Assembly: GCA_037917685.1 (NCBI GenBank)
Contig: JAVCBU010000006.1
Coordinates: forward strand, 288,001 to 352,000
Reading direction: 5' to 3'
Source of the DNA: Thermoproteota archaeon
GTDB lineage: Archaea; Korarchaeota; Korarchaeia; Korarchaeales; JAOZGB01
Length of the DNA: 64,000 nt
Shown here: piece after piece, positions 14,999 to 41,304 of the stretch
How positions within the stretch are numbered: the first letter of the stretch is position 1
Layout: each line of letters starts with the position of its first letter
The notes under the pieces: generated by a model
What the model was told of the DNA's origin: nothing
Databases searched by the model: none
Seen by the model: the letters and a program-made list of their open reading frames with translations, nothing else
Made by a program: the position numbers and the translations under genes

Positions 14999-15001
14999 CT
15001 T

Positions 15002-16351: not shown

Positions 16352-16424
16352 CGCCTTAACAATACTAACGGATTGTTTAGATTTTTAATATAATGAGTAG
16401 TATCAGGATGGGAGGTGCCTAAGC

Positions 16425-19212: not shown

Positions 19213-19836
19213 ATCTCAACACCACGATGTTATTCACCATTATAATATAAAAATGTATTACATAGACGTTACACGCATAAGCCATACGCCTATAAGACCG
19301 TAAAACCAACAACCAATATAACCATATTGTACGTTTTATCAGCGTTAAACATACGACATGTAGGGTGCTGACCATCCTCTCCCAACTTTACAATGTCACT
19401 AGTTAACAAAAGGCATTTATAAGGATAAGTCCAGAATTATGTAACAATGTTTAGTGACAATGTTAAGCAACGGATTAAATCCTTAAACGCTCCATAGAAC
19501 CGATCAAGATGGAAAAGATGGAAGGGATGGGTAGTCCTAGAAGGCACTTGAGCCTTCAAAACATGGAAAAACATAACCTCCTCTTCTTTAACCTTTGACT
19601 GCATCATATTGCACGTTTCCCTAACAGTAGAAAGGTACAGGGACTAAGTTCCTATATCTGTGATTTACCTGTTATGTGACACGCTTAACTCTCCTAGTCT
19701 ACCCCGGTAACATGCTGTTATTAGCCCATGGAGACCTTACAGGCGCTAAGGACTTATTAATACTTTAACTTATCCTTAACAGAGAAAACTAAGTAAGGTT
19801 CTACTCGTAAAATTTATCTGTTAGCTAATGTTTTTC

Positions 19837-21903: not shown

Positions 21904-22120
21904 GTACTACCATGGGATAGATCTATACCTATACATCATTCTTTACTGTCACTTTCAAAAAACTACTTTAAACCTTTGTTCAGCGTTCTATCCTTTATTG
22001 GAGTGTACAGGTTCGCAGAACAGTTCTTAGTCTTAAATTACCTCACAACAAGGCTTTATCGATAAATATATATTTATTAAAGGCTAACAATACTACGATA
22101 ATCGTCGGAGGTGTACCGAT

Positions 22121-23347
22121 ATGCAGAAACAAATAGTGGCTGCTGCCTTAATAGCTCTTATAATAGGCGTTCTCGCAGGTTACTTTGCAGCTCCAGCTAA
22201 AGTTGTAGAGAAGGAAGTAGTAAAAGAGGTTCAAGTTGAGAAGAAGCTTAAAGCAGCGTGGATCTACGTTGGGCCTATAGGGGACTATGGATGGAGCCAC
22301 GCGCATGACCAGGGGAGAAGATACTGTGAGAAGATATTTCCATGGCTAGAGACGGTGTACGCTGAGGCTGTAAGCGAGGCTGATGTTGACCGTTACATAG
22401 ATAGGTTCATTAAAGAGGAAGGATGCGATGTAGTCTTTACCACCTCGTTCGGATACATGGACGCTACCATAGCTGCTGGTGAACGTTATCCAGACAAGAT
22501 CCTCTTCCACTGTAGCGGCTATAAGAGGTCCTCTAACGTTGGAACATACTTCGCTGAGTTCTATCAGCTGTATTATCTGAATGGACTAATGGCCGGGGCA
22601 CTCACCAAAACAGGGAAGGTAGGGTATGTGGCTGCCCATCCGATCCCCGAGGTCATCAGGCACATCAACGCGTTCGCGCTAGGGGTAAAGGAGGTAAATC
22701 CCGACGCCAAGGTCTATGTTAGATGGCTATTCTCATGGTACGATCCAGCTAAAGCTAGAGAGGCGGCTGAAGCTCTCATCTCAGAGGGATGCGACTGCCT
22801 AGCGTTCACAGAGGACAGTCCAACAGTGATAGAAGTCGGCCAGGAGCATACCGAAGCAGGTCAGCAAATATACACCTTTAGCCACTACTCCCCGATGCAG
22901 AAGTTCGGCCCTGACAGCTGTGTATCTGGGCAGCTAGTACATTGGGAAGTAATCTACGCAGACATCCTGATGAAAATATACCTTGGAGTATACAAGCCTG
23001 GAAACCTTGAAAACGTAGACTACTGGTGGATGCTAAAAGAGGGAGCATGTGAGCTTGGCGGCGAATTTGGACAGCCAATAAACCCCAAGTTCGAGGACGA
23101 ACTAAAGTCGGTAATCGTTGAAGATCCAATACTAGGCAATATCTCTGTGTACGATCTCGTTATGACAAGACTAGCCCAGATGAGCGAGGAAGTTCCAACG
23201 TTCGACCCATTCACAGGACCCATATACGACCAGAATGGCGTTCTTAGAGTTAAACCGGGAGAAAGGCTTGGTCATGACGCACTGTGGACAATAGACTGGT
23301 TTGTAGACAACATAGTAGGAGAGATACCGGCTCCAGGACTCTGGTAA
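22121..23347 (+). CDS. BMP-family ABC substrate-binding protein (purine/nucleoside type)
   Basis: N-terminal signal/TM; YVGPIGDYGWS.AHD.GR, FTTSFGY, PIPEV.R.INAF.LG, W..SW.DP.K, W.IDW.V..I.G. Confidence 0.88.
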   Translation: MQKQIVAAALIALIIGVLAGYFAAPAKVVEKEVVKEVQVEKKLKAAWIYVGPIGDYGWSHAHDQGRRYCEKIFPWLETVYAEAVSEADVDRYIDRFIKEEGCDVVFTTSFGYMDATIAAGERYPDKILFHCSGYKRSSNVGTYFAEFYQLYYLNGLMAGALTKTGKVGYVAAHPIPEVIRHINAFALGVKEVNPDAKVYVRWLFSWYDPAKAREAAEALISEGCDCLAFTEDSPTVIEVGQEHTEAGQQIYTFSHYSPMQKFGPDSCVSGQLVHWEVIYADILMKIYLGVYKPGNLENVDYWWMLKEGACELGGEFGQPINPKFEDELKSVIVEDPILGNISVYDLVMTRLAQMSEEVPTFDPFTGPIYDQNGVLRVKPGERLGHDALWTIDWFVDNIVGEIPAPGLW

Positions 23348-23348
23348 T

Positions 23349-23367
23349 CCCCCCACCTTTTTTTATC
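23349..23367 (+). terminator. Probable archaeal U-tract terminator
   Basis: CCCCCCACCTTTTTTTATC immediately after the BMP stop codon. Confidence 0.5.
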
Positions 23368-23460
23368 TAACATGCAGTCTTTATACAACTCCATACCGGA
23401 AATCCAGGATAGCCTATTCGTATTGGAACAAACTCTGAAGAGAGAATTGAACTCCGAGTA

Positions 23461-24393
23461 CTATTTTTCTCCTCGTTTGTAGGGTATCCCTAGCGCCGCT
23501 GGTGCACCCATCTTCTTCCGTATCGTCTCTTCAGCCCCAAATATTAACACCACTATTGTTAAGATGAAAGGTAACATCCCTAAGAGGCTTGGAGATATAC
23601 CATAAGGTTGTAGATGATACTGCAGGGCGTCTACCCCCCCGAACAAGTACGAACCTATAGCAGATCTTAAGGGGTCCCACATTGCAAATATCGTTAAAGC
23701 TATCACAATCCACCCTCGGCCTGCGGTCATCCTTTCAATCCATGCTGGCGTGTAAACAACTGATAGGTAGGCACCGGCGATGCCAGCCATAACCCCGCCG
23801 AAGAAGGTGCACCCATACCTTATTAGAGAAACATTAACACCTAACGAGTCCGCTGTCTCAGGGCTTTCCCCAACAGATCTTATTTTTATTCCGAGGCTGG
23901 TCTTAAAGAGTATAAACCATAGCACTGGCACCAGAACGTAGGATATATAAACTAAGGGGTCTTGGTTGAAGAATGCCGGCCCAATAATCGGGATCTCACA
24001 TAGAAGTGGGATCTTGACATCTGAAATGCTTGGGATCTTGACTCCAATATAGGGCTTTCCTATAAGGCCGCTTAAACCTAGGCCGAACATCGTCAACGCG
24101 AGGCCTGAAACAACCTGGTTAGCCATCAATGTTATACTCAGCACAGCATGTATTAACGAGGACAGCCCACCGACCACTGCAGCGGCAGCTATCCCAAGCC
24201 ACGGGTTCCCGGTAACCCTTGTAACTGCAAATCCTGTTACGGCTCCTAAGATCATCATACCTTCAACCCCAAGGTTTAATATTCCTGATCTTTCAGCGTA
24301 AACTTCTCCTAGAGTCCCATAGAGAAGCGGAGTTCCAGCTCTAATTGCAGCCTTGAGTATAGAAGATATTATTAACTGGAGCATGTCCTTCAC
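23461..24393 (-). CDS. Nucleoside-type ABC permease (NupC-like)
   Basis: GE...ERSG.LN.G.EG.M, NQ.VSGLAL, G..IRSVGE.P..AD..G, AGRGWI..AL, APAALG.PY. Confidence 0.9.
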   Translation of the reverse strand: MKDMLQLIISSILKAAIRAGTPLLYGTLGEVYAERSGILNLGVEGMMILGAVTGFAVTRVTGNPWLGIAAAAVVGGLSSLIHAVLSITLMANQVVSGLALTMFGLGLSGLIGKPYIGVKIPSISDVKIPLLCEIPIIGPAFFNQDPLVYISYVLVPVLWFILFKTSLGIKIRSVGESPETADSLGVNVSLIRYGCTFFGGVMAGIAGAYLSVVYTPAWIERMTAGRGWIVIALTIFAMWDPLRSAIGSYLFGGVDALQYHLQPYGISPSLLGMLPFILTIVVLIFGAEETIRKKMGAPAALGIPYKRGEK

Positions 24394-25448
24394 CTCACGA
24401 TTCTAATTCTATACCTTTTCAATATCTCACCCGCAATTATGAAGATAAGAATTATCCCGTTAAATATGTCAATAGCCGCCACAGGCAGCCCCAGCGAAGT
24501 CTGAATTATATCGCCTCCCACGAGGAGTCCTCCGAGAAGTATGGACGACGCAAGCGTAAGCCATGGGTTTAAGCCTCCAAGCCAGGCCGCAATGATGGCT
24601 GTGTATCCGTACCCAGGTGATATCCCCATTCTAAGCCTATGCTGTATCCCAGCGACCTCACCCACACCAGCTATCCCTGCAAGCCCTCCACTTATTACCA
24701 TTACCAGTAGAACGGTCTTCAGATAATTTATTCCTGCATATCTGGCTGCATCTATGTTTTCACCTACAACTCTTATCTCATAGCCCACCTTTGTCTTGTT
24801 AAGTAATATGTAAGTTGCGGCTACAGCTACTACCCCGATAATCAGGGTTGGATAATGTATTCTCGTCCCTGGAATCCTTGGAAGTCTAGCATCTGGTGGA
24901 AACTTACTAGTATACGGGAACCCCCACTCTTCGGGCCCCCTCCAAGGCCCATATACCAGGTATTCCACAAGTTTTAATGCTATATAGTTTAACATCAGGG
25001 TTGTTATAACCTCGTTAACATTCAGCTTAGCCTTTAAAACTGCTGGAAGAAGAGACCACGCAGCTCCAGCCACGAAGCCTACAGCGAACATCAGTGGGAG
25101 AACCACGTATGATGGTGCAGTAAGATTCAAAGCTATACCGGTTGCGGCAACCGCACCTATAAGAAGCTGCCCTTCAGCGCCAATATTCCATATTAATGCC
25201 TTAAAAGCCAATGTAAGCCCAATACCACACAAGAGAAGGGGTATTGACTTTACTATTGTCTCGGAGAATCCATAAAGACTCCCAAAAGCGCCTCTAAAAA
25301 TCTTACCATAGGCTACAGCGGGGTTCACACCGTAGATCCAGAATATTATTGCAACAGCTAGTAATGCAAGGAATAACATGAGAAAACTTACACCTATGGA
25401 TAATAGCTTGCTCTCATACTCCCTTTTTTCAAGTCTAATCCTCATCAT
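24390..25448 (-). CDS. Nucleoside-type ABC permease (NupB-like)
   Basis: WNIGAEGQ, NEVITTLMLNYIA, GYE.R..G.N..AARYAG, GYG.TAI..A.LG. Confidence 0.9.
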   Translation of the reverse strand: MMRIRLEKREYESKLLSIGVSFLMLFLALLAVAIIFWIYGVNPAVAYGKIFRGAFGSLYGFSETIVKSIPLLLCGIGLTLAFKALIWNIGAEGQLLIGAVAATGIALNLTAPSYVVLPLMFAVGFVAGAAWSLLPAVLKAKLNVNEVITTLMLNYIALKLVEYLVYGPWRGPEEWGFPYTSKFPPDARLPRIPGTRIHYPTLIIGVVAVAATYILLNKTKVGYEIRVVGENIDAARYAGINYLKTVLLVMVISGGLAGIAGVGEVAGIQHRLRMGISPGYGYTAIIAAWLGGLNPWLTLASSILLGGLLVGGDIIQTSLGLPVAAIDIFNGIILIFIIAGEILKRYRIRIVR

Positions 25449-27022
25449 AGATCACCTTCACCCATATAAGATCTGCTTTCGCCTTCAACTCTCTTTGTTC
25501 CAGCCATCATAAGTCCTATATCTTCAATACTGGCCTCCTCAGGCTTTACTATCCCCATAAACTCACCTTCAAACATGACAGCTATCCTATCACTGAGGTT
25601 TAAGACTTCCTCTAAATCCTCAGAGACTAGTAAGACGCCGCATCCTCTTTCTCTTTGCTTGAGGAGAAGTTTTCTTATATACTCTGTCGCCCCAACGTCA
25701 AGCCCGTAAGTTGGGTGAGCGGCGACTATAACCCATGCGCCTCCGGAAAGCTCTCTTGCAAGGATAAGCCTCTGAATATTACCGCCTGAGAGAAGCTTAG
25801 CTGGAGTGTTAATACTTGGGGTCATAATCTCATATTCTTTAACCAGTTTTTCAGCGGTTTCTCGTATTATTCCCCAGTTTAACATGACCCTACCTGAGAA
25901 GGGTTTTGTATGATAAGATTTGAGAATTAGATTCTCAGCTACACTCAATCCCGGGGCTATTCCAAGCCTAATCCTTTCTTCAGGAATGTGGGCCATCCCA
26001 AGCATCGCTATTATCCTGGGGTTGCAGTTAGTTACATCCTTTCCCAGGCAGATGATTCTTCCAGACTCTACTTTTCTCAACCCAGTTATAGCTTCCACGA
26101 GCTCTCTTTGCCCGTTGCCAGCTACCCCTGCGATTCCGAGGATCTCGCCAGCCCTCAATGTAAATGATACCCCCTTAACAGCTGGCAGGCCACGGTCATT
26201 CAAAACATGCAAGTTTTCTACTTTGAGTAGAACTTCACCCGTAGCCACGGGTCTTCTCTCCAGCCTAAAAAGTACTTCTCTTCCGACCATCAGTCTAGCA
26301 AGTTCCCTCTTATTCGTATCAGATGTCTTAAGAGTGGAAACCACCTTTCCCTTTCTAAGAACAGTTACTCTATCGCTTACCTCAAAGACCTCATCAAGCT
26401 TATGAGTTATGAATATGATAGCCTTATTCTCAGCTTTCATCTCCTTTAGGGTTTTAAAAAGCTCTCTCGTTTCTGAGGGGGTTAAAACCGATGTTGGTTC
26501 ATCCAATATTAAAACTTCCGCCCCGCCGTACAAGGCTTTTATAATCTCAACCCTTTGCTGCTCCCCGGCTGAAAGCTCCCATATCCTTGCGTCTGGGTTA
26601 ACTTTTAACCCATATCTTTCTGAGAATTCTAATATTTTCTTCCTCACCTCTTCTATAGGGTTTACAAAACTCTTTACAAAGCCTAACGCCACATTTTCGG
26701 CGACTGTGTGTCTGTAAACGAGCTTAAAGTGCTGGTGAACCATCCCAATACCGTACCTTATCGCATCTCTCGGGGACTTTATTTCAACATGTTTCCCCCT
26801 TATATAGATACGGCCTTCGTCGGCCTGGTAAATACCGTACAATATGTTCATCAAAGTGGTCTTTCCAGCTCCATTCTCGCCGAGAAGAGCATGTATTTCT
26901 CCAGCTCTAACATCAAAGTCCACATGGTCATTAGCTATAACCCCTGGAAACCTCTTCACAATACCTTTCATGGAAACAATTGGAGGCTCACGTGCAGCCG
27001 TATGAACCACCTCTCTCTGCAA
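25445..27022 (-). CDS. CUT2-type double-domain ABC ATPase (NupA-like)
   Basis: GENGAGKTTL, GIGMVHQHF, LILDEPT, GVAGNGQ.EL, LSGGN.Q, PT.GLD.GA, SEDL.E. Confidence 0.92.
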   Translation of the reverse strand: MQREVVHTAAREPPIVSMKGIVKRFPGVIANDHVDFDVRAGEIHALLGENGAGKTTLMNILYGIYQADEGRIYIRGKHVEIKSPRDAIRYGIGMVHQHFKLVYRHTVAENVALGFVKSFVNPIEEVRKKILEFSERYGLKVNPDARIWELSAGEQQRVEIIKALYGGAEVLILDEPTSVLTPSETRELFKTLKEMKAENKAIIFITHKLDEVFEVSDRVTVLRKGKVVSTLKTSDTNKRELARLMVGREVLFRLERRPVATGEVLLKVENLHVLNDRGLPAVKGVSFTLRAGEILGIAGVAGNGQRELVEAITGLRKVESGRIICLGKDVTNCNPRIIAMLGMAHIPEERIRLGIAPGLSVAENLILKSYHTKPFSGRVMLNWGIIRETAEKLVKEYEIMTPSINTPAKLLSGGNIQRLILARELSGGAWVIVAAHPTYGLDVGATEYIRKLLLKQRERGCGVLLVSEDLEEVLNLSDRIAVMFEGEFMGIVKPEEASIEDIGLMMAGTKRVEGESRSYMGEGDL

Positions 27023-27124
27023 TTCTAAGCTCTATTTCATGCATAGGAGAGGAATAATATAAATAGGCATCTGCGATGTCAACCCTAAAATGGGAAACAA
27101 TAGAGTGTCGAGTCAGTATGGTTG

Positions 27125-28168
27125 CTATCTTATACCTCCCATCGTCAACACTAGAACTGCTGCTTTAGCATACATATTGTCTTCAGCCTGTTCGTAGATA
27201 ACTGACCTGTTAGAGTCCATTACCTCGTCGTCAGCCTCGTTTCCCCGTAGGACTGGTAGTACATGGGTTACTATCCCGTGCTTATCCATTAAGTCTAGAT
27301 CTTCCATTTTAAGCCTCCAATTCCTATACTTTGCATATATCTTCAATTCTTCATTGCCGAACTTGCTTGCTCCTAGCTCTGCGAGCCTCGCAGTGCACCA
27401 GCTCCTGGGGAACACCACATGTGCACCGTCCAAAGCATCCCTGTAATCGTTAGAGAACTCAAGCGATCCACCGCTATCCTCAGCGTTTCTCCTAGCGGTT
27501 TCAACTATTTTAGGGTCTAAGTCGAAGCCTTCGGGGTGTGCTACTATAACATCCATGCCAAACCTGGTAGCTAGAAGCATCTCCGCCTGTATACTGCAAC
27601 GTCCTCTTATAACAGGGGCGTATCCCCACATTATCACATACTTCTTACCGTTAAGTCTTCCAAGCTTATTTTCAATTGTGACCATGTCGCCGATGGCCTG
27701 GGTTGGATGGTACATGTCATCAGCCATGTTAATTATGGGTACCCTAACATGCTCTGCAAACTCCCTGATTACGGCGTTCCCACGTCCATAGACGTAATCT
27801 ATAGCCTTATCCAGAATTCTTATGCCAATCGCGTCTCCGTAGATCTCATACATCTTTGCAAGGTCTTTTATGGCTTCCCCCTCTTCAATCCTTGTCATCC
27901 TCGACTCAACGTACTGGGCGTGACCGCCAAGCATGGTCATTCCTGTTTCAAAGGCAGATCTAGTCCTTGTTGAAGGGGCGAAGAACAGCATAACAAATGT
28001 CTTCCGTTCAAGGTACCTGGGCAGGCCATCTATACCCTTCGTGTAGACTGTGTGTTTAAGCTCTCTTGCAAGGTTCATAGCAGTTCTTATCTCATCTATA
28101 CTCCACTCCTGGGTGGTTATGAGGTCTCTACCCCTAAGATCATCAACGTAGTACTTCACGATGGTCAC
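27125..28168 (-). CDS. Second, divergent knotted-type carbamoyltransferase
   Basis: FFAPSTRTR..F, HPTQ, TRFGMDV.VAHPEG.DLD, SGGS, PRSW, HVLP; clear paralog of 10340..11386. Confidence 0.8.
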   Translation of the reverse strand: MTIVKYYVDDLRGRDLITTQEWSIDEIRTAMNLARELKHTVYTKGIDGLPRYLERKTFVMLFFAPSTRTRSAFETGMTMLGGHAQYVESRMTRIEEGEAIKDLAKMYEIYGDAIGIRILDKAIDYVYGRGNAVIREFAEHVRVPIINMADDMYHPTQAIGDMVTIENKLGRLNGKKYVIMWGYAPVIRGRCSIQAEMLLATRFGMDVIVAHPEGFDLDPKIVETARRNAEDSGGSLEFSNDYRDALDGAHVVFPRSWCTARLAELGASKFGNEELKIYAKYRNWRLKMEDLDLMDKHGIVTHVLPVLRGNEADDEVMDSNRSVIYEQAEDNMYAKAAVLVLTMGGIR

Positions 28169-28195
28169 CTCGTGCTTTATCTCATCTGATCTGTT

Positions 28196-29560
28196 TTAAG
28201 CTTTCCTTAAATATCTAGGTATAAAGCTTCCCCAGCCCCTATTCCCGACGGACTCTCCATCTTTAACTATAATCCTACCTCTAGATATGGTTGTCTTAAC
28301 CCTACCCTTAATATGTAGTCCCTCAAAGGGTGTCCAGTCTGACTTATGATGTAACAGGTCGGCTTTAATGGTCCATTCCTCTTTTGGGTCGAACAGGACG
28401 ATGTCAGCATCCGAACCTGGCGCTATAACCCCCTTCTTAGGGTAAAGGCCGAATCTTCTCGCAGGATTTAAGGCGAGCACTTCCACAAGCCTGTTCAAAT
28501 CTATGATGCCTCTGGAAACTCCGAAACCATAGACAAGTGGGACCAGAGTCTCTACACCTGGTAAGCCTGAAGGAATATTCCATATATCCTTCCATCCTTC
28601 CTCCCTTTGATGTTTAAAGGTGGGGTAGTGATCTGTAGCCACCATGTCTATCGTTCCATCCTTAAGTCCCTTCCACAACGCTTCTACATCTCTGCTCCCT
28701 CTTAGTGGAGGGTTAACCTTTGCATATGGGCCAAGCCTCTCCACATCTTTTATGGTTAAGACAAGGTATTGTGGGCAAGTCTCTACTGTAACGTTAAATC
28801 CTTTGTTCTTTCCGTATCTTATAGCCTCAACACCGCCAGCGGTGGTCAGGTGGGCCACGTGAAGCGCTGTCCTAGTGAACCCGGCAAGAACTATAACCCT
28901 CCATACAGCCTCAACCTCCGCAACCCATGGCCTGAAGCCATGATGTGCAACAGGATCTTTCCTACCGTCCCTTACAGCCACTTCAACATACCTAGATATT
29001 ATACTGTCATTCTCCGCATGAACTACTACAACCGCTTTATTCTTAGTCTTCTCCATCAATTTTAGGATTGTATAGTCCTCCGCTTTAAAGGGAGGAGCTG
29101 TAAAAGTCTTGAAAGATGATACTCCAAGGTTAACAAGCTCATCAATGTCCTTAAGATCCTCAGGTTCTTCTATCATCCCTGCGTGCAAGGAAAAGTCTAT
29201 ATAGGACAGCCTTTCTCCGGCTTTTATCTTCTCCTTTACAGAACTAACCGTTACAACAGGTGTTGTTGTGGGCATTTCAATAATAGTAGTTACACCCCCA
29301 TGGGCCGCCGCTAGGGTTCCAGTATCAAAACTGTCTCTATCACCCAAGTCTTCAGGATCATAAATGTGTACGTGGACATCTATAAAACCAGGAAGGAGAA
29401 GCATACCATTAGCCTTTATTTCAATATCTCCCTTTGGAAGGCGATTGTCACTTCCAATCTGGACTATTTTACCATTTGATACAGATACCCCTCCCTCGAC
29501 AAGAATGCCGTTATAAAAGACCTTCGCTCCTCTAATGGTTAGTTCAACAAGTTCTCCCAC
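28196..29560 (-). CDS. Cyclic amidohydrolase (allantoinase/hydantoinase/dihydroorotase family)
   Basis: PGFIDVHVH, GT.AAA.GG.TT..EMP, SFKTF (carbamylated Lys), HAEN, AH.TT, ETCPQYL, NPPLR, ATDH, G.PG.ET, G.DAD.V. Confidence 0.85.
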   Translation of the reverse strand: MGELVELTIRGAKVFYNGILVEGGVSVSNGKIVQIGSDNRLPKGDIEIKANGMLLLPGFIDVHVHIYDPEDLGDRDSFDTGTLAAAHGGVTTIIEMPTTTPVVTVSSVKEKIKAGERLSYIDFSLHAGMIEEPEDLKDIDELVNLGVSSFKTFTAPPFKAEDYTILKLMEKTKNKAVVVVHAENDSIISRYVEVAVRDGRKDPVAHHGFRPWVAEVEAVWRVIVLAGFTRTALHVAHLTTAGGVEAIRYGKNKGFNVTVETCPQYLVLTIKDVERLGPYAKVNPPLRGSRDVEALWKGLKDGTIDMVATDHYPTFKHQREEGWKDIWNIPSGLPGVETLVPLVYGFGVSRGIIDLNRLVEVLALNPARRFGLYPKKGVIAPGSDADIVLFDPKEEWTIKADLLHHKSDWTPFEGLHIKGRVKTTISRGRIIVKDGESVGNRGWGSFIPRYLRKA

Positions 29561-29665
29561 ATGAGATGTTCACCTCCGCTAACGTATAAACTTTCTATTT
29601 TGTATTCGCAGGTGATGTCATGCTGAATAAGACATGTTTAAATGGTTGCAGGAGCATGTAATTTG

Positions 29666-29730
29666 GGGGATGAGGAGGGCGAACATCGAAACGAGATTTA
29701 TCGATGAGGTACCCAGTTCACCCTGACCCC
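29666..29730 (+). ncRNA. Candidate box C/D guide sRNA targeting the 23S rRNA peptidyl-transferase region
   Basis: GGGG..CCCC terminal stem, box C-like ATGAGGA, C'-like ATGAGGT, box D CTGA; guides GGGCGAACA and ACCCAGTTCAC are complementary to conserved 23S sequences UGUUCGCCC and GUGAGCUGGGU. Confidence 0.7.
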
Positions 29731-29747
29731 TTTGATGCCATAGAAAC

Positions 29748-30443
29748 CTACAGCCTTGTTAACGTTATCTTTTGGGATGCCGGTAGTGAAACATTGTAGA
29801 GTTTAACGCCCCCCATATTGTACTCTATAATTTTCGCATAATGAAGGTGGGCGTAGAAGACGATGCTAGGCTTTTTCTCTATGATAACTTTCTCGAATCC
29901 TGGATGGCCCAGCCATGGATACGCGCTCTTCTTCTCTCCTATCATAACCTTGAAGCTTGGAGCATAATGCATTAGTAGGATGACCCTGTCAGCGTGCTTC
30001 CAAGATTCTTCTATAATCTTAGAAATGTTTTCTACTCTTTTCCTGTATCTTTCAGCTATTCCGGGAATATGCTTTGCCTGCCAGCCTGTAGGCCGGTATA
30101 GACTTCCCTGGGTTCCACATATGCCCACTACTCTCTGGTCTATGTGGATATACTCAACCTCATCGTCTAGGAATCTAACCCTAGCCCCATATATTTTTCT
30201 TAAGCTTTCACGCTTATTTTCAAACTCCTCATTACCAAAACATGCAAAAATCTTTACATCGTTGCCAATATGTTCATCTATGGCCTTCAATACCGTTGCA
30301 TACTCTAATATCAAGCCTCGATAAATCATGTCACCTGCAAGGAGCATGATATCAGGCTTACGGGTTATATTAGATAGTGCCTGTCTGAATAGACCTAGAT
30401 ATCTTGGGGAATGAACATCGCCGACAGCTGCTATTAACATCAC
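29748..30443 (-). CDS. Calcineurin-like metallophosphoesterase
   Basis: GDVH, LAGD, GNEE, HYAP, AHLH motifs. Confidence 0.85.
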   Translation of the reverse strand: MMLIAAVGDVHSPRYLGLFRQALSNITRKPDIMLLAGDMIYRGLILEYATVLKAIDEHIGNDVKIFACFGNEEFENKRESLRKIYGARVRFLDDEVEYIHIDQRVVGICGTQGSLYRPTGWQAKHIPGIAERYRKRVENISKIIEESWKHADRVILLMHYAPSFKVMIGEKKSAYPWLGHPGFEKVIIEKKPSIVFYAHLHYAKIIEYNMGGVKLYNVSLPASQKITLTRL

Positions 30444-30516
30444 TAATCTAATCTTTGTATCTTTTATTATCTTTCAGCCTACCTTATTATAAAAGCCATA
30501 CTGGTAGTATGACCTG

Positions 30517-31641
30517 ATGGATGAAGCACCCAATTCATGTAGGTTCATTCTTGAAACACAAAAGCCAAGCATGATTGAAAAATTAAGATCGATTTTCAAG
30601 ACCGGAATAGCTAGGGAATACAACCCGTCATGGGTTCTTGAAGAGGCTGATGAAAACAGAATTGCAGTAACATCAGATGCAGACCTTTTCAAACCCGAAT
30701 ATGGTGTTCAAAGGATGATAAATGAAATCCTAAGAAGGATAGCGCCTGTAGGCGGCGCTAGGCTTGTAGACGTCATACTTCCAAGGGAGATTTTATCATC
30801 TTTTAATGGTCCTCATCACGGGGTAGATGGTATCTCAAAAATCCTAGGGTATACCGGCCCGCCTATTGCTGTTCAAATATCTGACTGGAAGGGTTCCATA
30901 CCATCCCGTATCCTAAAATTGTTCTATGAAATCGCTAGTCAGGGGGTTGATATAGGTATAGATTGTACAATGGATCCAGGTAAGTTTCAGGCTATGGCTG
31001 AGATGTCAATAGACTACATTAACAGGGTTAGGTCTGAAACTGGGAGGAAAGTACTCTTCGCAGTGAATCTACCTTCCAACCCGACTAAAATGGTTGAGTG
31101 TGCGGAGGAAGCCGCTGGAATCGGTGCTACAGCAGTTAAAGTATCTGGTGGGCTTGAGATCCTAGACGTCTTAATCCAGATTTCGAACCTCAAAGTTGAA
31201 ATACCAATCTTAGCCGATTTTTCAGGCTATTCTTACATCTATAAGGCAGTGGCACCTAGCGTCATCGTTAAACTAGCGCGGCTTTCAGGTGCTGACATCA
31301 TATTCCTAGAAAGGAATACTGTAGAGACGGTGGGCGAGCAAGACTATAAGTTATGTTTTAAAACCGTGCAAGTTGAAAACGGGTTTAAGAAGTCTTACCT
31401 TGTCTTAGACGGCCCCATGAATCCGAGCATGGTTGAGTACTTGCTCAAAACATATAGAAGATATATAGTTCTCTCCACCTCAGAAGCTGTATTTAACCAC
31501 CCCGACGGGTATAGCAGCGGGGCTAAAGCATTGAGGCAAGCCGTAGATGCTGTCCTGAGAGGTGAGAGCGTCTTTGAGGCTGCCGAGGCTCACGATGAGC
31601 TTAGACGTGCTATAGAAGCGTGGGAGCATAGAAGCTTATAA
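30517..31641 (+). CDS. RuBisCO large-subunit-fold protein lacking catalytic residues
   Basis: RL.D..LP......F.GP..G..G...LG, ETG.K...VN, KLARL.GAD, HPDG...GA.A.RQA.DA...G....A..H.EL..A.E.W scaffold motifs; the GxDxxKDDE motif reads GVDIGIDCT. Confidence 0.8.
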
Positions 31642-32595
31642 TAATTCTTTGCTTAGGCTTGTGAACCATCCAAACTCTCTTCTTAACACTAATATTGCAG
31701 CTTGTGGAGGGATTATCCCCTTCTCAGTTACAATTATATCCACATACTCTGAAGGGGTAATGTCGAACGCGGGATTCAAGACGGATACACCGTACTTTTT
31801 CATGTATTCTTTATCAACAACTTCCGTTTCAGGTCTAAGCTCTATCCTTATCAGCCTTCCAATGAGAGTTTCAGGCGAAAACTTGTAAGTTTCAGCAGCC
31901 ACCATCACTCTAACCCTAGCCTCGTAGGCTGCGAGAGCTATCTGAGATGTGCCGATCTTATTTACAACCGCGCCGTTCGCTGCGATGGCATCTGATCCGA
32001 CCACAACCTTATCTACCTTGTCCATGACGAACCTTGCTGCTGAGTCAACTATAAGGGTTACCGGAATGCCGTTCTCAGCAAGTATCCTAGATGTTATCCT
32101 CCCCTGAAATTTCGGCCTAGTCTCCGTAGAGAACACCTTAAAACTTTTACCTTCTTTATGCGCATGTAAGAGAATACTTAGGGCGGCCGTGCTATGGCAG
32201 TGGGTTAGAATTACATCCCCGTCTAAGATCCTTTTACTTCCAATCTCACCTATCCTCTCAACAGCAGCCAGCGAATTCTTTATGAACTCCTCCCCGCTCA
32301 TAATGACTATTTCTCTCAAGTCGTCGACAGAATTTCCTTCGACATATCCCCTATAGGCCCTTATAAGCACGTACCTAAGAGCATTTGGTAGAGAAACAGC
32401 TGTGGGACGAGTTGAATTCACAAACCTCGCTGTTTCTAAAAGTTCATGCCAGAATTCATCGCTGGTTCTAGCCTTTGACTCCCTAGCCACTATAACTAAG
32501 CATTCAGCCGCAGCCCTAGCGATTTTTCCAGCTCCCCTAATAGTCATATCTCTAATCTTTTCAGCTATATCTACAACTTTCGGGTTAAACTTCAC
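31636..32595 (-). CDS. Ribose-1,5-bisphosphate isomerase (eIF-2B-like)
   Basis: [28 protein letters not shown] (catalytic Cys), TETRP..QG, VG.DAI.ANG.V.NKIGT, AE.YKF, NPAFD.TP. Confidence 0.88.
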
Positions 32596-33861: not shown

Positions 33862-34485
33862 ATGACAGTGAATATTGCCGAACTGGAGAAACAGATAGAC
33901 ATGGATCTAACCCTAGGTAAAATCACCGAGGAAGAGTGGAAAAGGAAGATGGGTATAATTAAAAGCATTAAAAAACTTGATGAAGATTTAATCTACGGCA
34001 GGATAACAGAAGCCGAATATAAAAACAAGCGTGAAGCGCTAATTTCTCAACTCCAGCCACCCACGGCTGCCCCTACATACCAGCCTAAGCCTGAGACACC
34101 CCCTCCACCCCCGCTCTATACTAATATACAGAAAATCGTGTCAGAGCTTGAAATAGTGAAATCCAAGAGGAGAAAACTCTCTGATCTCCTCTTAAATAAG
34201 GAAATAAGCGAAAAAACCTTCAACAAGATAGATAACGAGCTGGAATCTGAGGAGAAGAAACTGGAGGAAAAACTGAAAAGTCTAAAATCTGAGATTGAAG
34301 AAAGAATAGAAAAGCTCTCATCCGAGCTGGAAGAACTAAAATTGCAGCTCGAAGAGGCACTAGCAAGGTGGAGAATAGGAGATATCACTGAGGATGAGTA
34401 TAACAGGAAGAAGTCGGAGCTGGAAGCAAGAAAAAACACGGTCGAGAACGAGCTGGAAACCTTGAAAAAGGCAGCGATAGACTAG
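33862..34485 (+). CDS. CdvA-like coiled-coil protein with G.I.E.EY helical-hairpin repeats and Pro-rich linker
   Basis: RRKL..L...KEISEK.F...(heptads)...GDITEDEY...K.EL resembles the CdvA coiled coil; N-terminal GKITEEEW and GRITEAEY; TPPPPP linker. Confidence 0.6.
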   Translation: MTVNIAELEKQIDMDLTLGKITEEEWKRKMGIIKSIKKLDEDLIYGRITEAEYKNKREALISQLQPPTAAPTYQPKPETPPPPPLYTNIQKIVSELEIVKSKRRKLSDLLLNKEISEKTFNKIDNELESEEKKLEEKLKSLKSEIEERIEKLSSELEELKLQLEEALARWRIGDITEDEYNRKKSELEARKNTVENELETLKKAAID

Positions 34486-34569: not shown

Positions 34570-36327
34570 ATGCCCAGTTTAGCAAAGCCTAAACAAAATA
34601 TCTATACAATAGGATACAGGTTCTTCAAACCTCTTGGAGAGCTGATAATGAAGCTCTACAAGGACCTACCAACAGATCTCGGCAAAGCAGATATGAGAGT
34701 ATACCCCCTAGCTTATGCATCAGCCGTCGCAATGCTAACCATAACCATGGCGGTCCTAATGGTTAGCATAAACCTAGTCCTCTACGCGGCTTTCAAAATA
34801 GTCTACCCCCTTATGATAGTCCTATGTATAATAATCCCAGTAATAACCTTCGCATTAGGATTGCTAGCCCCCGTCGTCTGGAAGTACAATAGGATAAAAT
34901 CTCTCGAGAATGAGACACCCTTCGCAGCAGCCTACATCTCTGTCATGTCCACAGGCGGGATAACACCCTTTAGAAGCATGAAAAGACTGAGCCAAGCCAA
35001 ACTACTGCCAAACCTGGCCAGAGTATCCAAGTACATAGTCTTCGATGTTTCATTGTTTGGAATAGACCCACTCTCAGCCATGGACAGAGCAGCCGAGAAT
35101 GTGCCGGCAAAAAGCTATTCCGAGCTAATAAAAGGATACGTTTCAACGGTTAGAACAGGAGGAGACTTCGTCCACTACCTGCTTCGGAAGACCGAGCTAA
35201 TGTTCAACGAGCGAATAGGACAACTAAGAATAATAGGGGAAAAGCTGGGTATGATGATGGAAGGATACATAGCGGTAACAGTACTCTTAGGCCTAGGGAT
35301 CTATGCCATATACATAACCAATGTAGCAATGCCAGTCCCTATGCCAATGTTCGGACAGGCGAGCTTCTTCCTGTTTACTTACATACTAACACCAATGATC
35401 TCGATTTTATTCTTATACCTTGGAGACATGATGCAACCATCCTATCCTGAAACTAACTGGAAAGTTTACAAGATATGGCTGGCGGGCCTAATACCTGGAA
35501 TAGTGGTAATCCTGTTATCAGCCATATTTCCAACCTTCCCGGTAAGAACCGCTGTAGAAAAACTTGTAATAGACATCCTAGGCTTAGGGCCTGGCACGGT
35601 TCTCCCAACTATCGTAGGATTATTGCTCATAATCTCAAGCATCCCGGGAGCCTGGGTAAGCATAAGATACGATAAAAGAAAGAGAGAAACGGAGAGAAAC
35701 CTGGCATTTTTCCTACGGGACCTCGTGGAGATAAGAAAGGCGGGATTACCACCTGAGAAGTGCATAGCAAACCTCAAAAATAGAGACTACGGTATCCTAT
35801 CACCACTGATAAAAAGGCTTTCAGCACAAATAGAATGGGGCATACCAATCCACAAAATTCTCCGTGATTTCAACAATTCAGTAAACAGCTGGCTTGCCAA
35901 AATGATGATGTTCCTCCTAGTAGACGCGATAGACATCGGTGGCGGAACCCCCCGCACGATGGAAGCAATGGCAAGCTACACCGAAATGATGAACGAAGTA
36001 GAAAATCAGAAGAGAGAACAGTTGAGACCACTCCTAATAGTACCATACATAGGAGCCCTAGTACTTGTAGTCTCAACGGTGATACTCCTAGGATTCATGA
36101 GAGGGGTTCTAGCCCTAGCAAGAATGGGAATAGCCTACGAATCTTTCCTTCAAATGTTCACAACACCCCTAGTGATAAACGTATACCTAATGGGCCTAGT
36201 ATCAGGAAAAGTAGGCGAAGAAAAAGTGTCAGCAGGAATAAAACACGCACTCCTACTAACCCTAATCTCAGTAGTAGCCCTGTGGATAACACCCTCAATA
36301 AGCATCACATTCGCACCAGTAGGATAA
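34570..36327 (+). CDS. Type IV pilus platform protein PilC/TadC (duplicated T2SS-F domains)
   Basis: E.P.A..Y..VMS.GG, G.DPL.A, G..ST..TGG, FLRD..E..K.G..P, I.WG.P, I..GG; about 9 TM helices. Confidence 0.88.
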   Translation: MPSLAKPKQNIYTIGYRFFKPLGELIMKLYKDLPTDLGKADMRVYPLAYASAVAMLTITMAVLMVSINLVLYAAFKIVYPLMIVLCIIIPVITFALGLLAPVVWKYNRIKSLENETPFAAAYISVMSTGGITPFRSMKRLSQAKLLPNLARVSKYIVFDVSLFGIDPLSAMDRAAENVPAKSYSELIKGYVSTVRTGGDFVHYLLRKTELMFNERIGQLRIIGEKLGMMMEGYIAVTVLLGLGIYAIYITNVAMPVPMPMFGQASFFLFTYILTPMISILFLYLGDMMQPSYPETNWKVYKIWLAGLIPGIVVILLSAIFPTFPVRTAVEKLVIDILGLGPGTVLPTIVGLLLIISSIPGAWVSIRYDKRKRETERNLAFFLRDLVEIRKAGLPPEKCIANLKNRDYGILSPLIKRLSAQIEWGIPIHKILRDFNNSVNSWLAKMMMFLLVDAIDIGGGTPRTMEAMASYTEMMNEVENQKREQLRPLLIVPYIGALVLVVSTVILLGFMRGVLALARMGIAYESFLQMFTTPLVINVYLMGLVSGKVGEEKVSAGIKHALLLTLISVVALWITPSISITFAPVG

Positions 36328-36991: not shown

Positions 36992-37786
36992 CTACCTCCT
37001 CACCCGTTTCAAAAAGCCAAAACTAAATAAAAGTCTCCTCTTCGGCCTCACCACAATAGCCGGCGGCTTCACACCCATAATCCTAGCAGCCACACTCCTC
37101 AAAGCCAAAGCCGCAGGAGAATCAGGTTTAACCTTAGCCAAAACCTCAAGCCTAGCAGACGAAACTTTCATGGCAGGATCATGAGGGATGGCGCCCAAAA
37201 AAGGCATTTCCAGAATCCTCTCGAAACTCCGAACAACCTCAGGTCTAAGCAAACCCTGGTCTTCAACATCGTTCAAAACAAAACCCAAAGCCCGAGCCCT
37301 AACATTATCCCCTGTACCCTTAACAAACAAGGCAGCATCCAAGCTCCAAACATCAGGCTCTACAACGACTAGATACTCCCGGAAAGCGGACATAGCCCTA
37401 ACCACATTCCCCCCCAAACCCTGACCAGCATCCACAATAACATAATCAACACGGTCAGCAATAGAACCAAGCATCCTAACAAGATCATCAAAAAGAACAC
37501 CACCAGACCCCCGCCGGAAAGGCCTAACAGGAATAATTCCAAGCCTATCATGAATTCTCGTGGCATGAACAGCCTTCCACAGTGGAATACCCTCAGAAAC
37601 AACCCTCACCAAGTCAACCTCAACATCAGCAACCCCAAAAAGCCTCGACAAACAGGCAAACTCCAAATCACCATCAACCAACAAAACAACATTCCCAGCC
37701 TCAGCCAACAAAAAACCTAGGTTAGCACTAACAACAGTCTTACCAGTACCACCCTTCCCAGAAACCACCACAAAGCCACGCTTCAA
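36992..37786 (-). CDS. MinD/ParA-family ATPase
   Basis: SGKGGTGKT, VDGD, DYVIVDA..G, GFVLN, IP.D; basic/aromatic C-terminal tail LFSFGFLKRVRR; TTG start after GAGGTTGGGG. Confidence 0.85.
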   Translation of the reverse strand: MKRGFVVVSGKGGTGKTVVSANLGFLLAEAGNVVLLVDGDLEFACLSRLFGVADVEVDLVRVVSEGIPLWKAVHATRIHDRLGIIPVRPFRRGSGGVLFDDLVRMLGSIADRVDYVIVDAGQGLGGNVVRAMSAFREYLVVVEPDVWSLDAALFVKGTGDNVRARALGFVLNDVEDQGLLRPEVVRSFERILEMPFLGAIPHDPAMKVSSARLEVLAKVKPDSPAALALRSVAARIMGVKPPAIVVRPKRRLLFSFGFLKRVRR

Positions 37787-37865
37787 CCCCAACCTCAAAC
37801 ATACTAACAGACCGAAACATATAAAAATAATCCCAACCCCCCAAATAAATAGCAAGCCAACAACT

Positions 37866-37902
37866 AACAACAAACCAAAAAAGAAAGGGAAATAAAGGGA
37901 AG
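37866..37902 (-). terminator. U-rich terminator after pilin gene
   Basis: Minus strand CTTCCCTTTATTTCCCTTTCTTTTTTTGGTTTG directly after the pilin stop. Confidence 0.5.
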
Positions 37903-38698: not shown

Positions 38699-40297
38699 TT
38701 ACATTTTAATTGTTGTTTTAATCTTCCTTAAGTAGTATTCCCTTATCATTCTCCCTATTTCTCTGTAGTCTGTTACGTTTCTTTTGATCATTTCTTCTAT
38801 TAGCGCTTCTCTTTCTCTAATTTCGTTTATTATGTCTGGGACTGTTCTCGCTGTTTCTATGGCTATTTCTTTCAGTATCCTGCTTTTTGTTAGGTCTCCT
38901 ATGAACAGGTCCCTGCCTGCGTTCCACCAGAACACGGTGTTCTTCTGGAGGGTTGCGCCGTCATAGTCAATAATTTCATCTATTCTTTTTATCCTTCTAG
39001 CCATCCTTCCGTTAGGTAAGTTCACTCTTCCAAGTAGGATCGCTATTTTGATAAGGGGTATGTAAGCTGGTGCTATGTCCAGAGGTTTCTGTGTGAACCT
39101 CTTGATTGCTGCTTCGACACTGTCTGCGTGGAATGTTGTAAGTCCCCCGTGTCCTGTTGCTATTGCTTGTATTAGGGCGTATGCTTCTCTTCCTCTAATT
39201 TCTCCGACAATTATGTAGTCAGGTCGGTGTCTTAGGCTTGTCACTACTAGGTCGAATAGGTCTATTCCTCCTCCGGTTTCCTTGCTTACACCTAGCCCGT
39301 ATGCAGGTCTTGATATGAATTCTATCCAGTTTTCATGTGGTAGCCTTAGTTCCGCGGTTTCCTCTACTGTTATTATCTTTGCTTCAGGCCTTATCATACA
39401 TGATAGGGCATTTAGAAGTGTTGTTTTCCCAGCTGCTGTAGCCCCGATTATTAGTACAGCCTTTTTGTACTCCATGGCTATCCAGAGGTAGGCGGCCATT
39501 TCGCTTGTTAGAACTCCGAAGTTTATCAGGTCAACAATAGTGTAAGGTTTCTCTCTGAATTTTCTAATTGTGAATGTTCCACCTTTAGGGGTTATTTCAC
39601 GCCTGTAGCTTGCTGCAAGCCTGTGCTTTCCCTCGAGCATGACGTCTACTATGGGGAAGGCTGTTGAGATGTGTTTTCCAGCTCGATGGACGAGTTTTAC
39701 TATAAACTCGTCCAGGTATTCCTCGCTGTTGAAAATTATGTTTGTCTTCATGCTTTCATACTTTCTGTGCCAGATGTAAACTGGAACGCCGACTCCGTCG
39801 CACGATATGTCCTCGATGTTAGGATCCCTCATAAGTCCGTCGATCGGGCCGTAGCCTAGAAGGTTTCTTTTGATGTAGCACAGTATTTTAGGCCAGCTTA
39901 CCGTTTCTTTGAGTTTAATCTTATACTTTTTAGCTATCCTTGTAGCCTCTAGGGCGAGGTATTTCTCTCTGTCTTTTATCTCGTCAGGTGCCATTATTTC
40001 GCTTGACAGCATGTCGACTACAAGGTCGTATATCTCCTTCTCCTGCTTGTTCATTTTTTCCTCGATTACGAAATATCTTCTTTCCCCGTCAACAGGGTTC
40101 ATGGCTATGACAGCCTTGGAGAAAACCTTATATGTAGGGTATTCTTTCACTGTAGGAAACGGGTTAAGCTCTGGAGGGGCTGCTTCGAGCTCGGATGCTT
40201 CGTAAAGTTTATATGCTTCAATTATATCCCAGTCAGGGGGTAGTGGCTCTAGAGTGACTTCTTCAGGTTTTATTTCCCGTTCTAGTAATGACCACAT
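38699..40297 (-). CDS. Type IV pilus assembly ATPase PilB/TadA (VirB11/ArlI family)
   Basis: GYG.ID..M.DPNIEDISCDG, FTIRKF, GATAAGKTT.LN, TVEET.EL, LR.RPDYI.VGE.RG.EA, ATGHG...T.HA. Confidence 0.93.
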   Translation of the reverse strand: MWSLLEREIKPEEVTLEPLPPDWDIIEAYKLYEASELEAAPPELNPFPTVKEYPTYKVFSKAVIAMNPVDGERRYFVIEEKMNKQEKEIYDLVVDMLSSEIMAPDEIKDREKYLALEATRIAKKYKIKLKETVSWPKILCYIKRNLLGYGPIDGLMRDPNIEDISCDGVGVPVYIWHRKYESMKTNIIFNSEEYLDEFIVKLVHRAGKHISTAFPIVDVMLEGKHRLAASYRREITPKGGTFTIRKFREKPYTIVDLINFGVLTSEMAAYLWIAMEYKKAVLIIGATAAGKTTLLNALSCMIRPEAKIITVEETAELRLPHENWIEFISRPAYGLGVSKETGGGIDLFDLVVTSLRHRPDYIIVGEIRGREAYALIQAIATGHGGLTTFHADSVEAAIKRFTQKPLDIAPAYIPLIKIAILLGRVNLPNGRMARRIKRIDEIIDYDGATLQKNTVFWWNAGRDLFIGDLTKSRILKEIAIETARTVPDIINEIREREALIEEMIKRNVTDYREIGRMIREYYLRKIKTTIKM

Positions 40298-40425: not shown

Positions 40426-41304
40426 ATGATAATCTTGATTGAATTATCAAAACTGGAAGAAGAGCTGAGGGTTTTAGAAGATCTTTACAAATCGGGTCAG
40501 ATTTCAAGAGAAAAGTATATCAGTCGGATATCTGAAATTAAAGAGAGATTCGAGGCTATTAAAAGGAAGTACAGCTTGGAGAAGGGTGGAAAAGCCAAAG
40601 TGAAGCCTAGAATCTCACAAACAGAGTTGACCTATCTAAATATCATTAGAAAGTTCCCTGACATTTTAACACCGAAAATAGAGGGGTTCCTCCGAGTCTC
40701 ATTTAAGAAAGCCGCTGAGGTTTTCGGAGAGCAGGAAAGCGAAACGATGAGCACCCTTACCAGGCTGGAGTCGGCGGGTGTACTCAGAAAGGAGAGGATG
40801 TTATCTCTTTTGAAGTGCCCAAAATGTGGTAATGAGGGTCTGGTGCTGACCGTTAGGTGCCCTCACTGCGATAGCCCTAGCCTGCACAAAAGAATCATTC
40901 TGAAACACTTGCCATGCGGCCATGTGGACTTTACAGAAAACTATATGAGAGAAAGAGGGAGCCTGGTATGTCCTTCATGTTTTAGACCTATAGAGAACGA
41001 GTATGAGAAGCTAGGGATATTTGTGTGCGAAGAATGCGGGAGAGTATCCTCTCTTCCTCTCGTCAAAGGTTTCTGCACTGCTTGCCAAGCGGAAGTTGAT
41101 GTGAGAGACTCGGATATACTGCCTGTCTTTTCGTTCTCCATGCCATCCGAAATAGCTAAGCATGTTATGCCAGAGCTTTCAGCGTTTGAGTTTGAAAAGG
41201 AATTCACAGAAAGGATAGAGAAGCATCTCAGAGTTGCAAGGCAGGAGAGTGATAAGTCTACCGAGATAAGGAAGCTTTTCAAAGAGATTCTGGAAAAGAA
41301 GTAG
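40426..41304 (+). CDS. TackOD1-like wHTH/multi-Zn-ribbon protein with N-terminal G.IS..KY hairpin
   Basis: L..L...G.L followed by CPKC, CPHC, H..CG, CPSC, CEEC, CTAC. Confidence 0.65.
   Translation: MIILIELSKLEEELRVLEDLYKSGQISREKYISRISEIKERFEAIKRKYSLEKGGKAKVKPRISQTELTYLNIIRKFPDILTPKIEGFLRVSFKKAAEVFGEQESETMSTLTRLESAGVLRKERMLSLLKCPKCGNEGLVLTVRCPHCDSPSLHKRIILKHLPCGHVDFTENYMRERGSLVCPSCFRPIENEYEKLGIFVCEECGRVSSLPLVKGFCTACQAEVDVRDSDILPVFSFSMPSEIAKHVMPELSAFEFEKEFTERIEKHLRVARQESDKSTEIRKLFKEILEKK

Follow-up and report, generated by a model that had tools for sequence, protein, structure and literature searches.

A RuBisCO large-subunit homologue predicted to lack its active site, encoded tail-to-tail with ribose-1,5-bisphosphate isomerase in a Thermoproteota genome

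The DNA analyzed here, referred to as the window, is a stretch of 64,000 nucleotides from a Thermoproteota archaeon (assembly GCA_037917685.1, contig JAVCBU010000006.1, positions 288,001 to 352,000). It carries an uninterrupted open reading frame (ORF) of 374 codons for a homologue of the large subunit of RuBisCO (the carboxylase/oxygenase of ribulose-1,5-bisphosphate), in which two of 19 canonical catalytic and substrate-binding positions were kept. The gene and its product are called stripped below. A gene for ribose-1,5-bisphosphate (R15P) isomerase lies downstream in convergent orientation, and a metallophosphoesterase gene lies upstream in divergent orientation (Table 1). A preliminary description, made by eye from the sequence, had reported an intact frame, a RuBisCO fold and the replacement of all catalytic motifs, and had proposed a non-catalytic subunit of an active RuBisCO encoded elsewhere or a partner of the isomerase. 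The observations on frame, fold and motifs were borne out by the analyses that follow, while the functional proposal was upheld in part.

Table 1. Coordinates of the main features (window positions unless a contig is named)
Feature	Position	Strand	Evidence
Stripped RuBisCO large-subunit homologue, 374 aa (reduced N-domain, triosephosphate isomerase (TIM) barrel, C-terminal helices)	30517..31641	+	ORF, Pfam, AlphaFold2 (AF2), Foldseek
Remnant of the KDDE metal/carbamate site, end of barrel strand beta2 (codons G147-I148-D149-C150-T151)	30955..30969	+	Alignments, model strand
D-x3-R-G-E motif, C-terminal helices (codons D344-A-V-L-R348-G349-E350)	31546..31566	+	Clade-versus-form-III conservation table
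TATA-like box TTATAAAAG, 22-30 nt before ATG	30487..30495	+	Read directly
R15P isomerase (e2b2), 319 aa, convergent with the stripped gene	31636..32595	-	TIGR00511
Calcineurin-like metallophosphoesterase, divergent from the stripped gene, 73-bp spacer	29748..30443	-	Pfam PF00149
Adenosine monophosphate (AMP) phosphorylase	G000 contig C6:268975-270480		TIGR03327, 616 bits (cut-off 535)
AMP phosphorylase	G000 contig C6:283158-284648		TIGR03327, 623 bits (cut-off 535)

The Pfam model RuBisCO_large (PF00016) matched the stripped protein with 49.8 bits (gathering cut-off 30.1, E = 3.8e-13) over residues 160-369 only, and the Pfam model of the RuBisCO N-domain gave no match to it. The closest entries of the PDB by sequence (phmmer) were the form III RuBisCO of T. 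kodakarensis (3kdo) and the 2,3-diketo-5-methylthiopentyl-1-phosphate (DK-MTP-1-P) enolase of Geobacillus (2oek), with E values of about 2e-25. The AF2 model, built from a 57-row alignment, reached a predicted local distance difference test (pLDDT) score of 92.3 and a predicted template modelling (pTM) score of 0.92; the barrel in it has eight strands, and the N-domain is reduced. When this model was searched with Foldseek, structures of RuBisCO-like proteins (RLPs) and form III enzymes were matched over about 400 columns with query template modelling scores (TMq) of 0.78-0.85 and a best E value of 6.6e-24. Residues were placed from secondary structure and homology to RuBisCO. Taken together, the predicted structure and the sequence matches confirm the ORF as encoding a genuine RuBisCO-fold member of the large-subunit superfamily.

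Assignment to a described family was not obtained, as all NCBIfam models of RuBisCO and RLPs remained far under their cut-offs. The top model was that of DK-MTP-1-P enolase (NF007095), with 113.5 bits against a cut-off of 409; the DK-MTP-1-P enolase MtnW model TIGR03332 gave 100.6 bits against 513.6, and the form III equivalog TIGR03326 gave 99.8 bits against 497.45.

For the active site, 19 canonical catalytic and substrate positions were tabulated after alignment with other form III proteins and with the form III large subunit (RbcL) of the same genome. The latter is encoded on contig C14, scored 608.9 bits against the TIGR03326 cut-off of 497 and is 61% identical to a protein named from Ca. 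Methanodesulfokora washburnensis (class Korarchaeia), so that a korarchaeon is the probable host. It was intact at all 19 positions, and an active-looking form III enzyme is thus encoded elsewhere in the genome, as the preliminary description had imagined. The positions, which we take to be E60, T65, W66, N123, K175, K177, H294, R295, H298, H327, K334, S379, G380, G381, G403 and G404, were located on this form III protein, with K201, D203 and E204 completing the set.

In the stripped protein, K201 is replaced by I148, and D203 and E204 are deleted or replaced within a four-residue deletion (GID----CT). KPKxG has become SDWKG (K175 to Ser, K177 to Trp) and HAHRAxH has become LADFSGY (H294 to Asp, R295 to Phe, H298 to Tyr). 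The loop-6 GKL is gone together with its lysine, SGG is replaced by DGP, and GGG by SEA. The N-domain motifs ESSxGTW (AESSTG in the preliminary description) and GNIFG are missing, and, compared with the form III protein of the same genome, 29 fewer residues precede the FxGP motif (G98 aligns with G127). The HMMER alignment to 3kdo gave the same losses. A realignment that would restore KDDE was ruled out, as MAFFT, HMMER and the strand positions of the model agree, with model strand beta2 (residues 146-149) in register with the alignment.

Accordingly, the lysine that would be carbamylated, the ligands of Mg2+, the lysines serving as general bases, loop 6 and the two sites for phosphate binding are all predicted to be missing from the stripped protein, as is what the N-domain contributes to the active site. 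The protein should be incapable of canonical binding of Mg2+/CO2 or ribulose-1,5-bisphosphate (RuBP), and of RuBisCO or known RLP chemistry.

Selection on the gene was assessed with a close orthologue found among the matches listed (84% identity, same length and same start), whose DNA was available on two metagenome contigs, L023 and L024, where it has the neighbours seen in the window. Against L024, the ratio of nonsynonymous to synonymous substitution rates (dN/dS) of the stripped gene was 0.087 by NG86 and 0.121 by YN00 over 374 codons, with dS of about 0.8-1.0. Similar values were obtained for the flanking metallophosphoesterase (0.082 and 0.105, respectively) and likewise for flanking hypothetical genes. 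The isomerase gave 0.024 and 0.031, so that the ratio of the stripped gene was 3-4 times higher. In four further clade pairs with unsaturated dS, values of 0.089, 0.196, 0.112 and 0.140 were obtained.

The stripped gene is under purifying selection and is not decaying. A decaying pseudogene or meaningless ORF is hardly credible as an explanation: the frame is intact, the orthologue has retained length and start, dN/dS lies at 0.09-0.12, the fold prediction is confident and orthologues are kept in six genera. Three observations would have suited decay, namely a stem branch in the lineage of the window that is longer than any other in the clade (1.68-2.03 changes per column), a clearly decayed RLP remnant elsewhere in the genome, and loss of the gene in some relatives; the candidate was ruled out by dN/dS. 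With its catalytic motifs lost and purifying selection on the gene, the stripped protein would qualify as a pseudoenzyme.

In a survey of homologues, the stripped protein was searched against 41 related genomes. Orthologues were found in genera g3, g4, g5 and g6 at 27-37% identity and, more weakly, in g2 at 23-28%. A profile scan of the genome contigs with a two-sequence alignment gave no relatives, and the same scan with the clade alignment gave nine loci. Word-index searches over at most 8000 candidates yielded few members of the clade. In an IQ-TREE phylogeny (LG+C20) of 54 superfamily members, 16 clade rows (genera g1-g6 plus the sequences P0033 and P0052) were split from the other 38 with a Shimodaira-Hasegawa-like approximate likelihood ratio test (SH-aLRT) support of 100; the tree is unrooted. 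FastTree with 131 rows gave a clade of 14 rows with support 100. Its point of attachment lies between the form III group and the part of the tree with MtnW-type RLPs. As far as searched, the clade is confined to a single group of Thermoproteota at the level of an order, probably within Korarchaeia.

K201 was absent from every clade member, and 1-4 of the 19 positions were kept in each, except for P0033 with 10 of 19. Scores of the Pfam RuBisCO_large model formed a gradient from 167 bits for P0033 through 99 (g6), 84 (g5), 50 (window), 45 (g4) and 35 (g3) to 24-30 bits (g2). P0033, a metagenomic representative of 422 aa, is the slowest-evolving clade member and matches both Pfam RuBisCO domains; its best NCBIfam model is form III, with 283 bits. 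It keeps E60, T65, W66, K175, K177, E204 and R295, among others, while K201 is Val and D203 is Gly, and it may be an intermediate stage of active-site decay.

Outside the clade, K201, D203 and E204 were kept together in 120 of 154 homologues, and K201 in 128, in line with the earlier remark that most RLPs keep a KDDE-type motif. At most five of the 19 positions were kept in twelve of the 154, which stand in several places of the tree. These twelve (P0051, P0080, P0088, P0091, P0112, P0113, P0117, P0121, P0132, P0158, P0170 and P0179) are metagenomic sequences, and some of them, e.g., P0080 and P0117, are placed in the midst of form III-like sequences. The active site seems to have been lost independently in them.

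Conservation within the clade was compared with that in form III. For the former active-site columns, the mean fraction of the top residue was 0.41 in the 16 clade rows, compared with 0.48 for all columns; in form III, the corresponding values were 1.00 and 0.61. The former active-site positions were variable even inside a single genus, and selection in the clade no longer targets the canonical site. Six residues were identical throughout the 16 rows without being conserved in form III: G114, P129, D344, R348, G349 and E350. None of them is placed at the barrel mouth. The last four form the D-x3-RGE motif, a candidate for a new functional surface. Monophyly (SH-aLRT 100), loss of K201 and the invariant D-x3-RGE (16/16 rows) coincided in the same sequences, which would define the stripped proteins as a clade of their own.

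The same comparison bears on the possibility of a neo-functionalised enzyme, in which the barrel would hold a new, metal-independent site for a substrate possibly derived from nucleoside or nucleobase catabolism. Purifying selection on the gene suits this possibility, and seven charged residues at C-terminal ends of barrel strands (D123, D149, D234, E265, R266, D298 and E323) are identical in the 84% orthologue, with E323 and R266 fairly conserved across the clade. The known chemistries of RLPs are diverse, comprising methionine salvage, sulfur metabolism and apiose catabolism in the available text of PMC6389311. However, an invariant polar residue at the barrel mouth was found in none of the columns across the 16 rows, the former active-site columns were no more conserved than average and varied within genera, the clade-specific invariant residues are located in the C-terminal helices, and the best NCBIfam enzyme model reached 113.5 bits against 409. 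A new enzyme is therefore considered unlikely.

The identity of the neighbouring gene was clear. The isomerase scored 420.5 bits against TIGR00511 (cut-off 314.1), which places it within the equivalog, and of four e2b2-family matches in the genome it was the sole one above the cut-off. A pair of MtnW-type enolase and MtnA-type isomerase was considered and rejected, as the neighbouring protein qualifies as R15P isomerase by its equivalog model and the enolase site is missing from the RLP.

At their 3' ends, the two convergent ORFs have 6 nt in common (31636-31641). The preliminary description had the stop codon of the stripped gene overlapping that of the isomerase; the overlap of the ORFs holds, but the stops are adjacent and not coincident, since the last Leu codon of the stripped ORF (TTA) reads on the opposite strand as the isomerase's TAA stop. 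The TATA box described earlier near 30487 was found as TTATAAAAG. It has the usual archaeal spacing from TATA to start, on which its designation as a putative promoter is based; an mRNA started at this distance would be leaderless or nearly so.

In all 27 orthologue loci examined for gene order, the isomerase was convergent and immediately downstream; these correspond to about 15 distinct loci, several contigs being present in two collections. The metallophosphoesterase arrangement beside the stripped gene was repeated in L023 and L024. In genera g3, g4 and g6, a gene for a Clp1-like P-loop kinase (Clp1_P, PF16575) lies divergently upstream and a DUF72 gene follows the isomerase. The ancestral locus of the clade was a Clp1-like kinase gene pointing left, the RLP gene pointing right, the R15P isomerase gene pointing left and the DUF72 gene pointing right. 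By genome, the stripped gene was tail-to-tail with the isomerase in 12 of the 15 genomes having an isomerase above the cut-off, so that the adjacency noted earlier is retained in relatives. Form III RuBisCO was present in all 12, and it co-occurs with the stripped gene in 12 of 22 carrier genomes.

A different pattern was observed in genus g2, where 10 of 21 genomes carry the stripped gene. True R15P isomerase above the cut-off was found in 0/21 of these genomes, and form III RuBisCO above the cut-off likewise in 0/21. Four of the ten loci were inspected; they contained the Clp1-like, RLP and DUF72 genes, and the isomerase was absent in 4/4. Five further g2 genomes (96-99% completeness) gave no match even with a g2 query. 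The g2 stripped RLPs (genomes G002-G035; loci L033-L035 and L038) are 333-361 aa long and encoded beside the Clp1-like kinase. With 24-30 bits they lie at or under the Pfam cut-off and are probably annotated as hypothetical.

The converse was observed in two g5 genomes, G019 and G025, which have kept the Clp1-like, isomerase and DUF72 genes and form III, with the stripped gene missing from the locus. In G019, a gap of 560 bp remains at the place of the missing gene (L039, 3434-3996), where a remnant might persist, whereas in G025 there is almost no gap between the Clp1-like kinase and isomerase genes (L040, 3987-4015). Together, the patterns in g2 and in G019/G025 mean that each partner can be lost without the other. 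The link between stripped gene and isomerase may be historical, as a relic of an rbcL-e2b2 pair, or facultative.

These patterns bear on the part of the earlier proposal that saw in the stripped protein a dedicated partner. Such a protein would bind R15P isomerase as a scaffold, channel or allosteric subunit, or would heterodimerise with form III RbcL; the heterodimer would be without a complete active site, and the stripped protein would then be a tuning or inhibitory subunit. The 12 of 15 tail-to-tail pairs with form III in every one, the retention of the pair in the lineage of the window despite both flanks having changed, and its location in a nucleoside-catabolism island (see below) speak for this explanation, as does the construction of RuBisCO-family active sites across the dimer interface, described in the available text of PMC13454268. 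On the other hand, ten g2 genomes have an orthologue with neither isomerase nor form III in the genus and no adjoining isomerase in the loci inspected, G019 and G025 have both enzymes but no stripped gene at the locus, and the evolutionary rate of the stripped protein is 3-4 times that of the isomerase. The genes are also convergent, so that stripped gene and isomerase share no transcript. A complex prediction of R15P isomerase with the stripped protein gave scores of 0.00 and 0.00, which count neither way.

A dedicated partner is thus judged rather unlikely, and the evidence argues that the stripped protein would be an accessory and not an obligate subunit of isomerase or RuBisCO. In terms of the preliminary description, the loss of catalytic residues stands, and the g2 and g5 patterns and the convergent genes speak against the dedicated partnership.

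The genomic surroundings point to nucleoside metabolism. The contig also carries two AMP phosphorylase genes, located 3.4 and 17.5 kb upstream of the point where the window begins. Within the window, positions 13235-30443 encode an adenine deaminase, a CoA-ligase-like protein (CoA-binding and Succ_CoA_lig domains), a class-III aminotransferase and an H+-pyrophosphatase, together with a Bmp/PnrA-type nucleoside ABC transporter (binding protein, two permeases and a double ATPase), an OTCase-family carbamoyltransferase, a hydantoinase-like amidohydrolase and the metallophosphoesterase. Given the AMP phosphorylases and the nucleoside genes of the window, the pair of stripped gene and isomerase lies within an island for nucleoside and nucleobase utilisation.

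A second RLP locus was observed in the same genome on contig C7 (L002, 958-1764). It contains an ORF of 137 aa, a C-terminal RLP remnant with SGG and GGA motifs that is 58% identical to residues 323-428 of a KDDE-keeping RLP of another genome (G040, locus L012). Ahead of it lies an N-terminal fragment of an ABC ATPase (120 aa), 62% identical to the window ATPase at 25445-27022. The locus looks like a decayed paralogous one.

Downstream of the isomerase, the window encodes a CdvA-like coiled-coil protein (33862-34485) and a set resembling type IV pilus or archaellum systems, consisting of a T2SSF-like membrane protein (34570-36327), a ParA/MinD-type ATPase (36992-37873) and a T2SSE ATPase (38699-40297). 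Positions 40426-41304 encode a protein with a TackOD1 domain.

Considering all of these results, we lean, by a little more than an even balance, towards the stripped protein being a conserved non-catalytic RuBisCO-fold protein, probably a relic of an ancestral rbcL-isomerase pair, with a binding or regulatory role. An ancestral rbcL beside the isomerase would have been made redundant by a second form III rbcL; the redundant gene would have lost catalysis and then been retained for a non-catalytic role. Its product, presumably a dimer as in related proteins, would use the RuBisCO fold for binding or regulation, and the conserved surface would have moved from the barrel mouth to the C-terminal helices with the invariant D-x3-RGE. 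Because the pair is located in the nucleoside island, the role in the host genome would probably touch the AMP/pentose-bisphosphate route.

Several points weigh against this interpretation of a retained, non-catalytic relic. The absence of catalysis is read from sequence, and pseudoenzymes sometimes relocate catalytic residues. The position of the former G403/G404 (E323) is occupied by D or E in 13 of the 16 rows, and close to the former H327 an Arg (R266) is nearly invariant in the 12-row alignment; the two could belong to a new site for a small molecule and give the sole indication that a pocket remains. The tree is unrooted and therefore leaves a catalytic ancestor as an inference, with descent from a catalytic rbcL supported only by the intermediate P0033 and the gradient of Pfam scores. 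The lineage of the window changed both flanks yet kept the pair of stripped gene and isomerase, and survival of the pair through this rearrangement would fit a tighter functional link than assumed here. Finally, the block from RtcA to DUF72, Clp1-like and DUF4147/MOFRL is common to the whole order; since baseline synteny is this high, adjacency alone is weak evidence of function.

A more far-reaching version is quite unlikely and is offered as speculation. The stripped protein, as a dead paralogue descended from an rbcL-e2b2 pair, might be the first RuBisCO-derived regulatory pseudoenzyme, which would tune the AMP/pentose-bisphosphate pathway via R15P isomerase or via inactive heterodimers with RbcL, with D-x3-RGE as the contact, and which would have been re-used in g2 after loss of the pathway. 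Should regulation of the pentose-bisphosphate pathway by the stripped protein be demonstrated, it would add a new layer of control to archaeal nucleoside catabolism.

RuBisCO ranks among the best-studied enzymes, and accounts of its superfamily usually divide it into the carboxylases of forms I-III and RLP enzymes with a retained metal/carbamate site. A fold maintained under purifying selection without the active site indicates that the scaffold can be retained for a purpose other than enolate chemistry. The graded series from P0033 (10/19) down to 1-4/19 provides material for studying the transition from enzyme to pseudoenzyme. For annotation, a 'RuBisCO large chain' match beside R15P isomerase is no proof of a working AMP pathway.

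In the literature consulted, no description of the stripped clade or of its link to the isomerase was found, although such sequences might be present in the RuBisCO trees that supplement PMC12787533 and PMC10667645. The available text of these two papers on Korarchaeia mentions only form III, deoA and e2b2. In that of PMC13454268, RLPs are treated as a collapsed outgroup and the word stem 'Korarchae' is absent.

Among known systems, form III RuBisCO is the closest in several respects. Its structures (T. kodakarensis 3kdo and 3a12; 1geh) share the fold with a TMq of about 0.8, and it provides a top PDB match (E of about 2e-25). The motifs FxGPxxG, GxD, ETG, ARLxG and HPxGxxxGAxAxRxA and a W near the C-terminus are common to both, and both genes are associated in genomes with R15P isomerase and AMP phosphorylase. 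They differ in the active site (19/19 versus 2/19 positions), in the N-domain, about 29 residues shorter in the stripped protein, and in the loop-6 lysine, which the latter lacks.

Form IV RLPs, namely MtnW (2oek, 4nas and 2zvi), the Chlorobium RLP (1ykw) and RLP2 of R. palustris (2qyg), were the top Foldseek matches, with E values from 1e-23 to 7e-24. Like the stripped protein, they are non-carboxylating superfamily members with a substituted active site. In contrast to the stripped protein, which is without the metal site, the MtnW-type sequence P0041 (652 bits against NF007095) keeps K201, D203 and E204. The stripped protein also falls outside the tree group holding MtnW, and with its scores under the cut-offs and the KDE site absent it would not be counted as a DK-MTP-1-P enolase MtnW.

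Highly divergent homologues have been described from phages and from Beckwithbacteria, which belong to the CPR (Candidate Phyla Radiation). In the available text of Jaffe et al. 2019 (PMC6389311), these 'form IV-like' RLPs have key residues unlike those of known RLPs and their function is given as unknown. In a protein-language-model search, the nearest matches of the stripped protein were viral RuBisCO_large clusters (0.93), which is taken as a lead only; none of the PHROG families matched it. Unlike the phage RLPs, with which the comparison was made outside any tree, the stripped clade is archaeal, chromosomal, vertically inherited in a syntenic block and linked to R15P isomerase. The twelve other stripped homologues together with the phage and CPR RLPs indicate that such stripping is recurrent, and stripped RuBisCO homologues are thus a recurring but essentially unstudied phenomenon.

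The stripped protein can finally be compared with pseudoenzyme paralogues, as treated in the available text of PMC5106787 and PMC10211241. As in those cases, the catalytic motifs are gone while the protein is conserved, and an active paralogue co-occurs in 12 of 22 carriers. Unlike pseudoenzyme paralogues in general, the stripped gene is also carried in g2 by genomes without the active paralogue.

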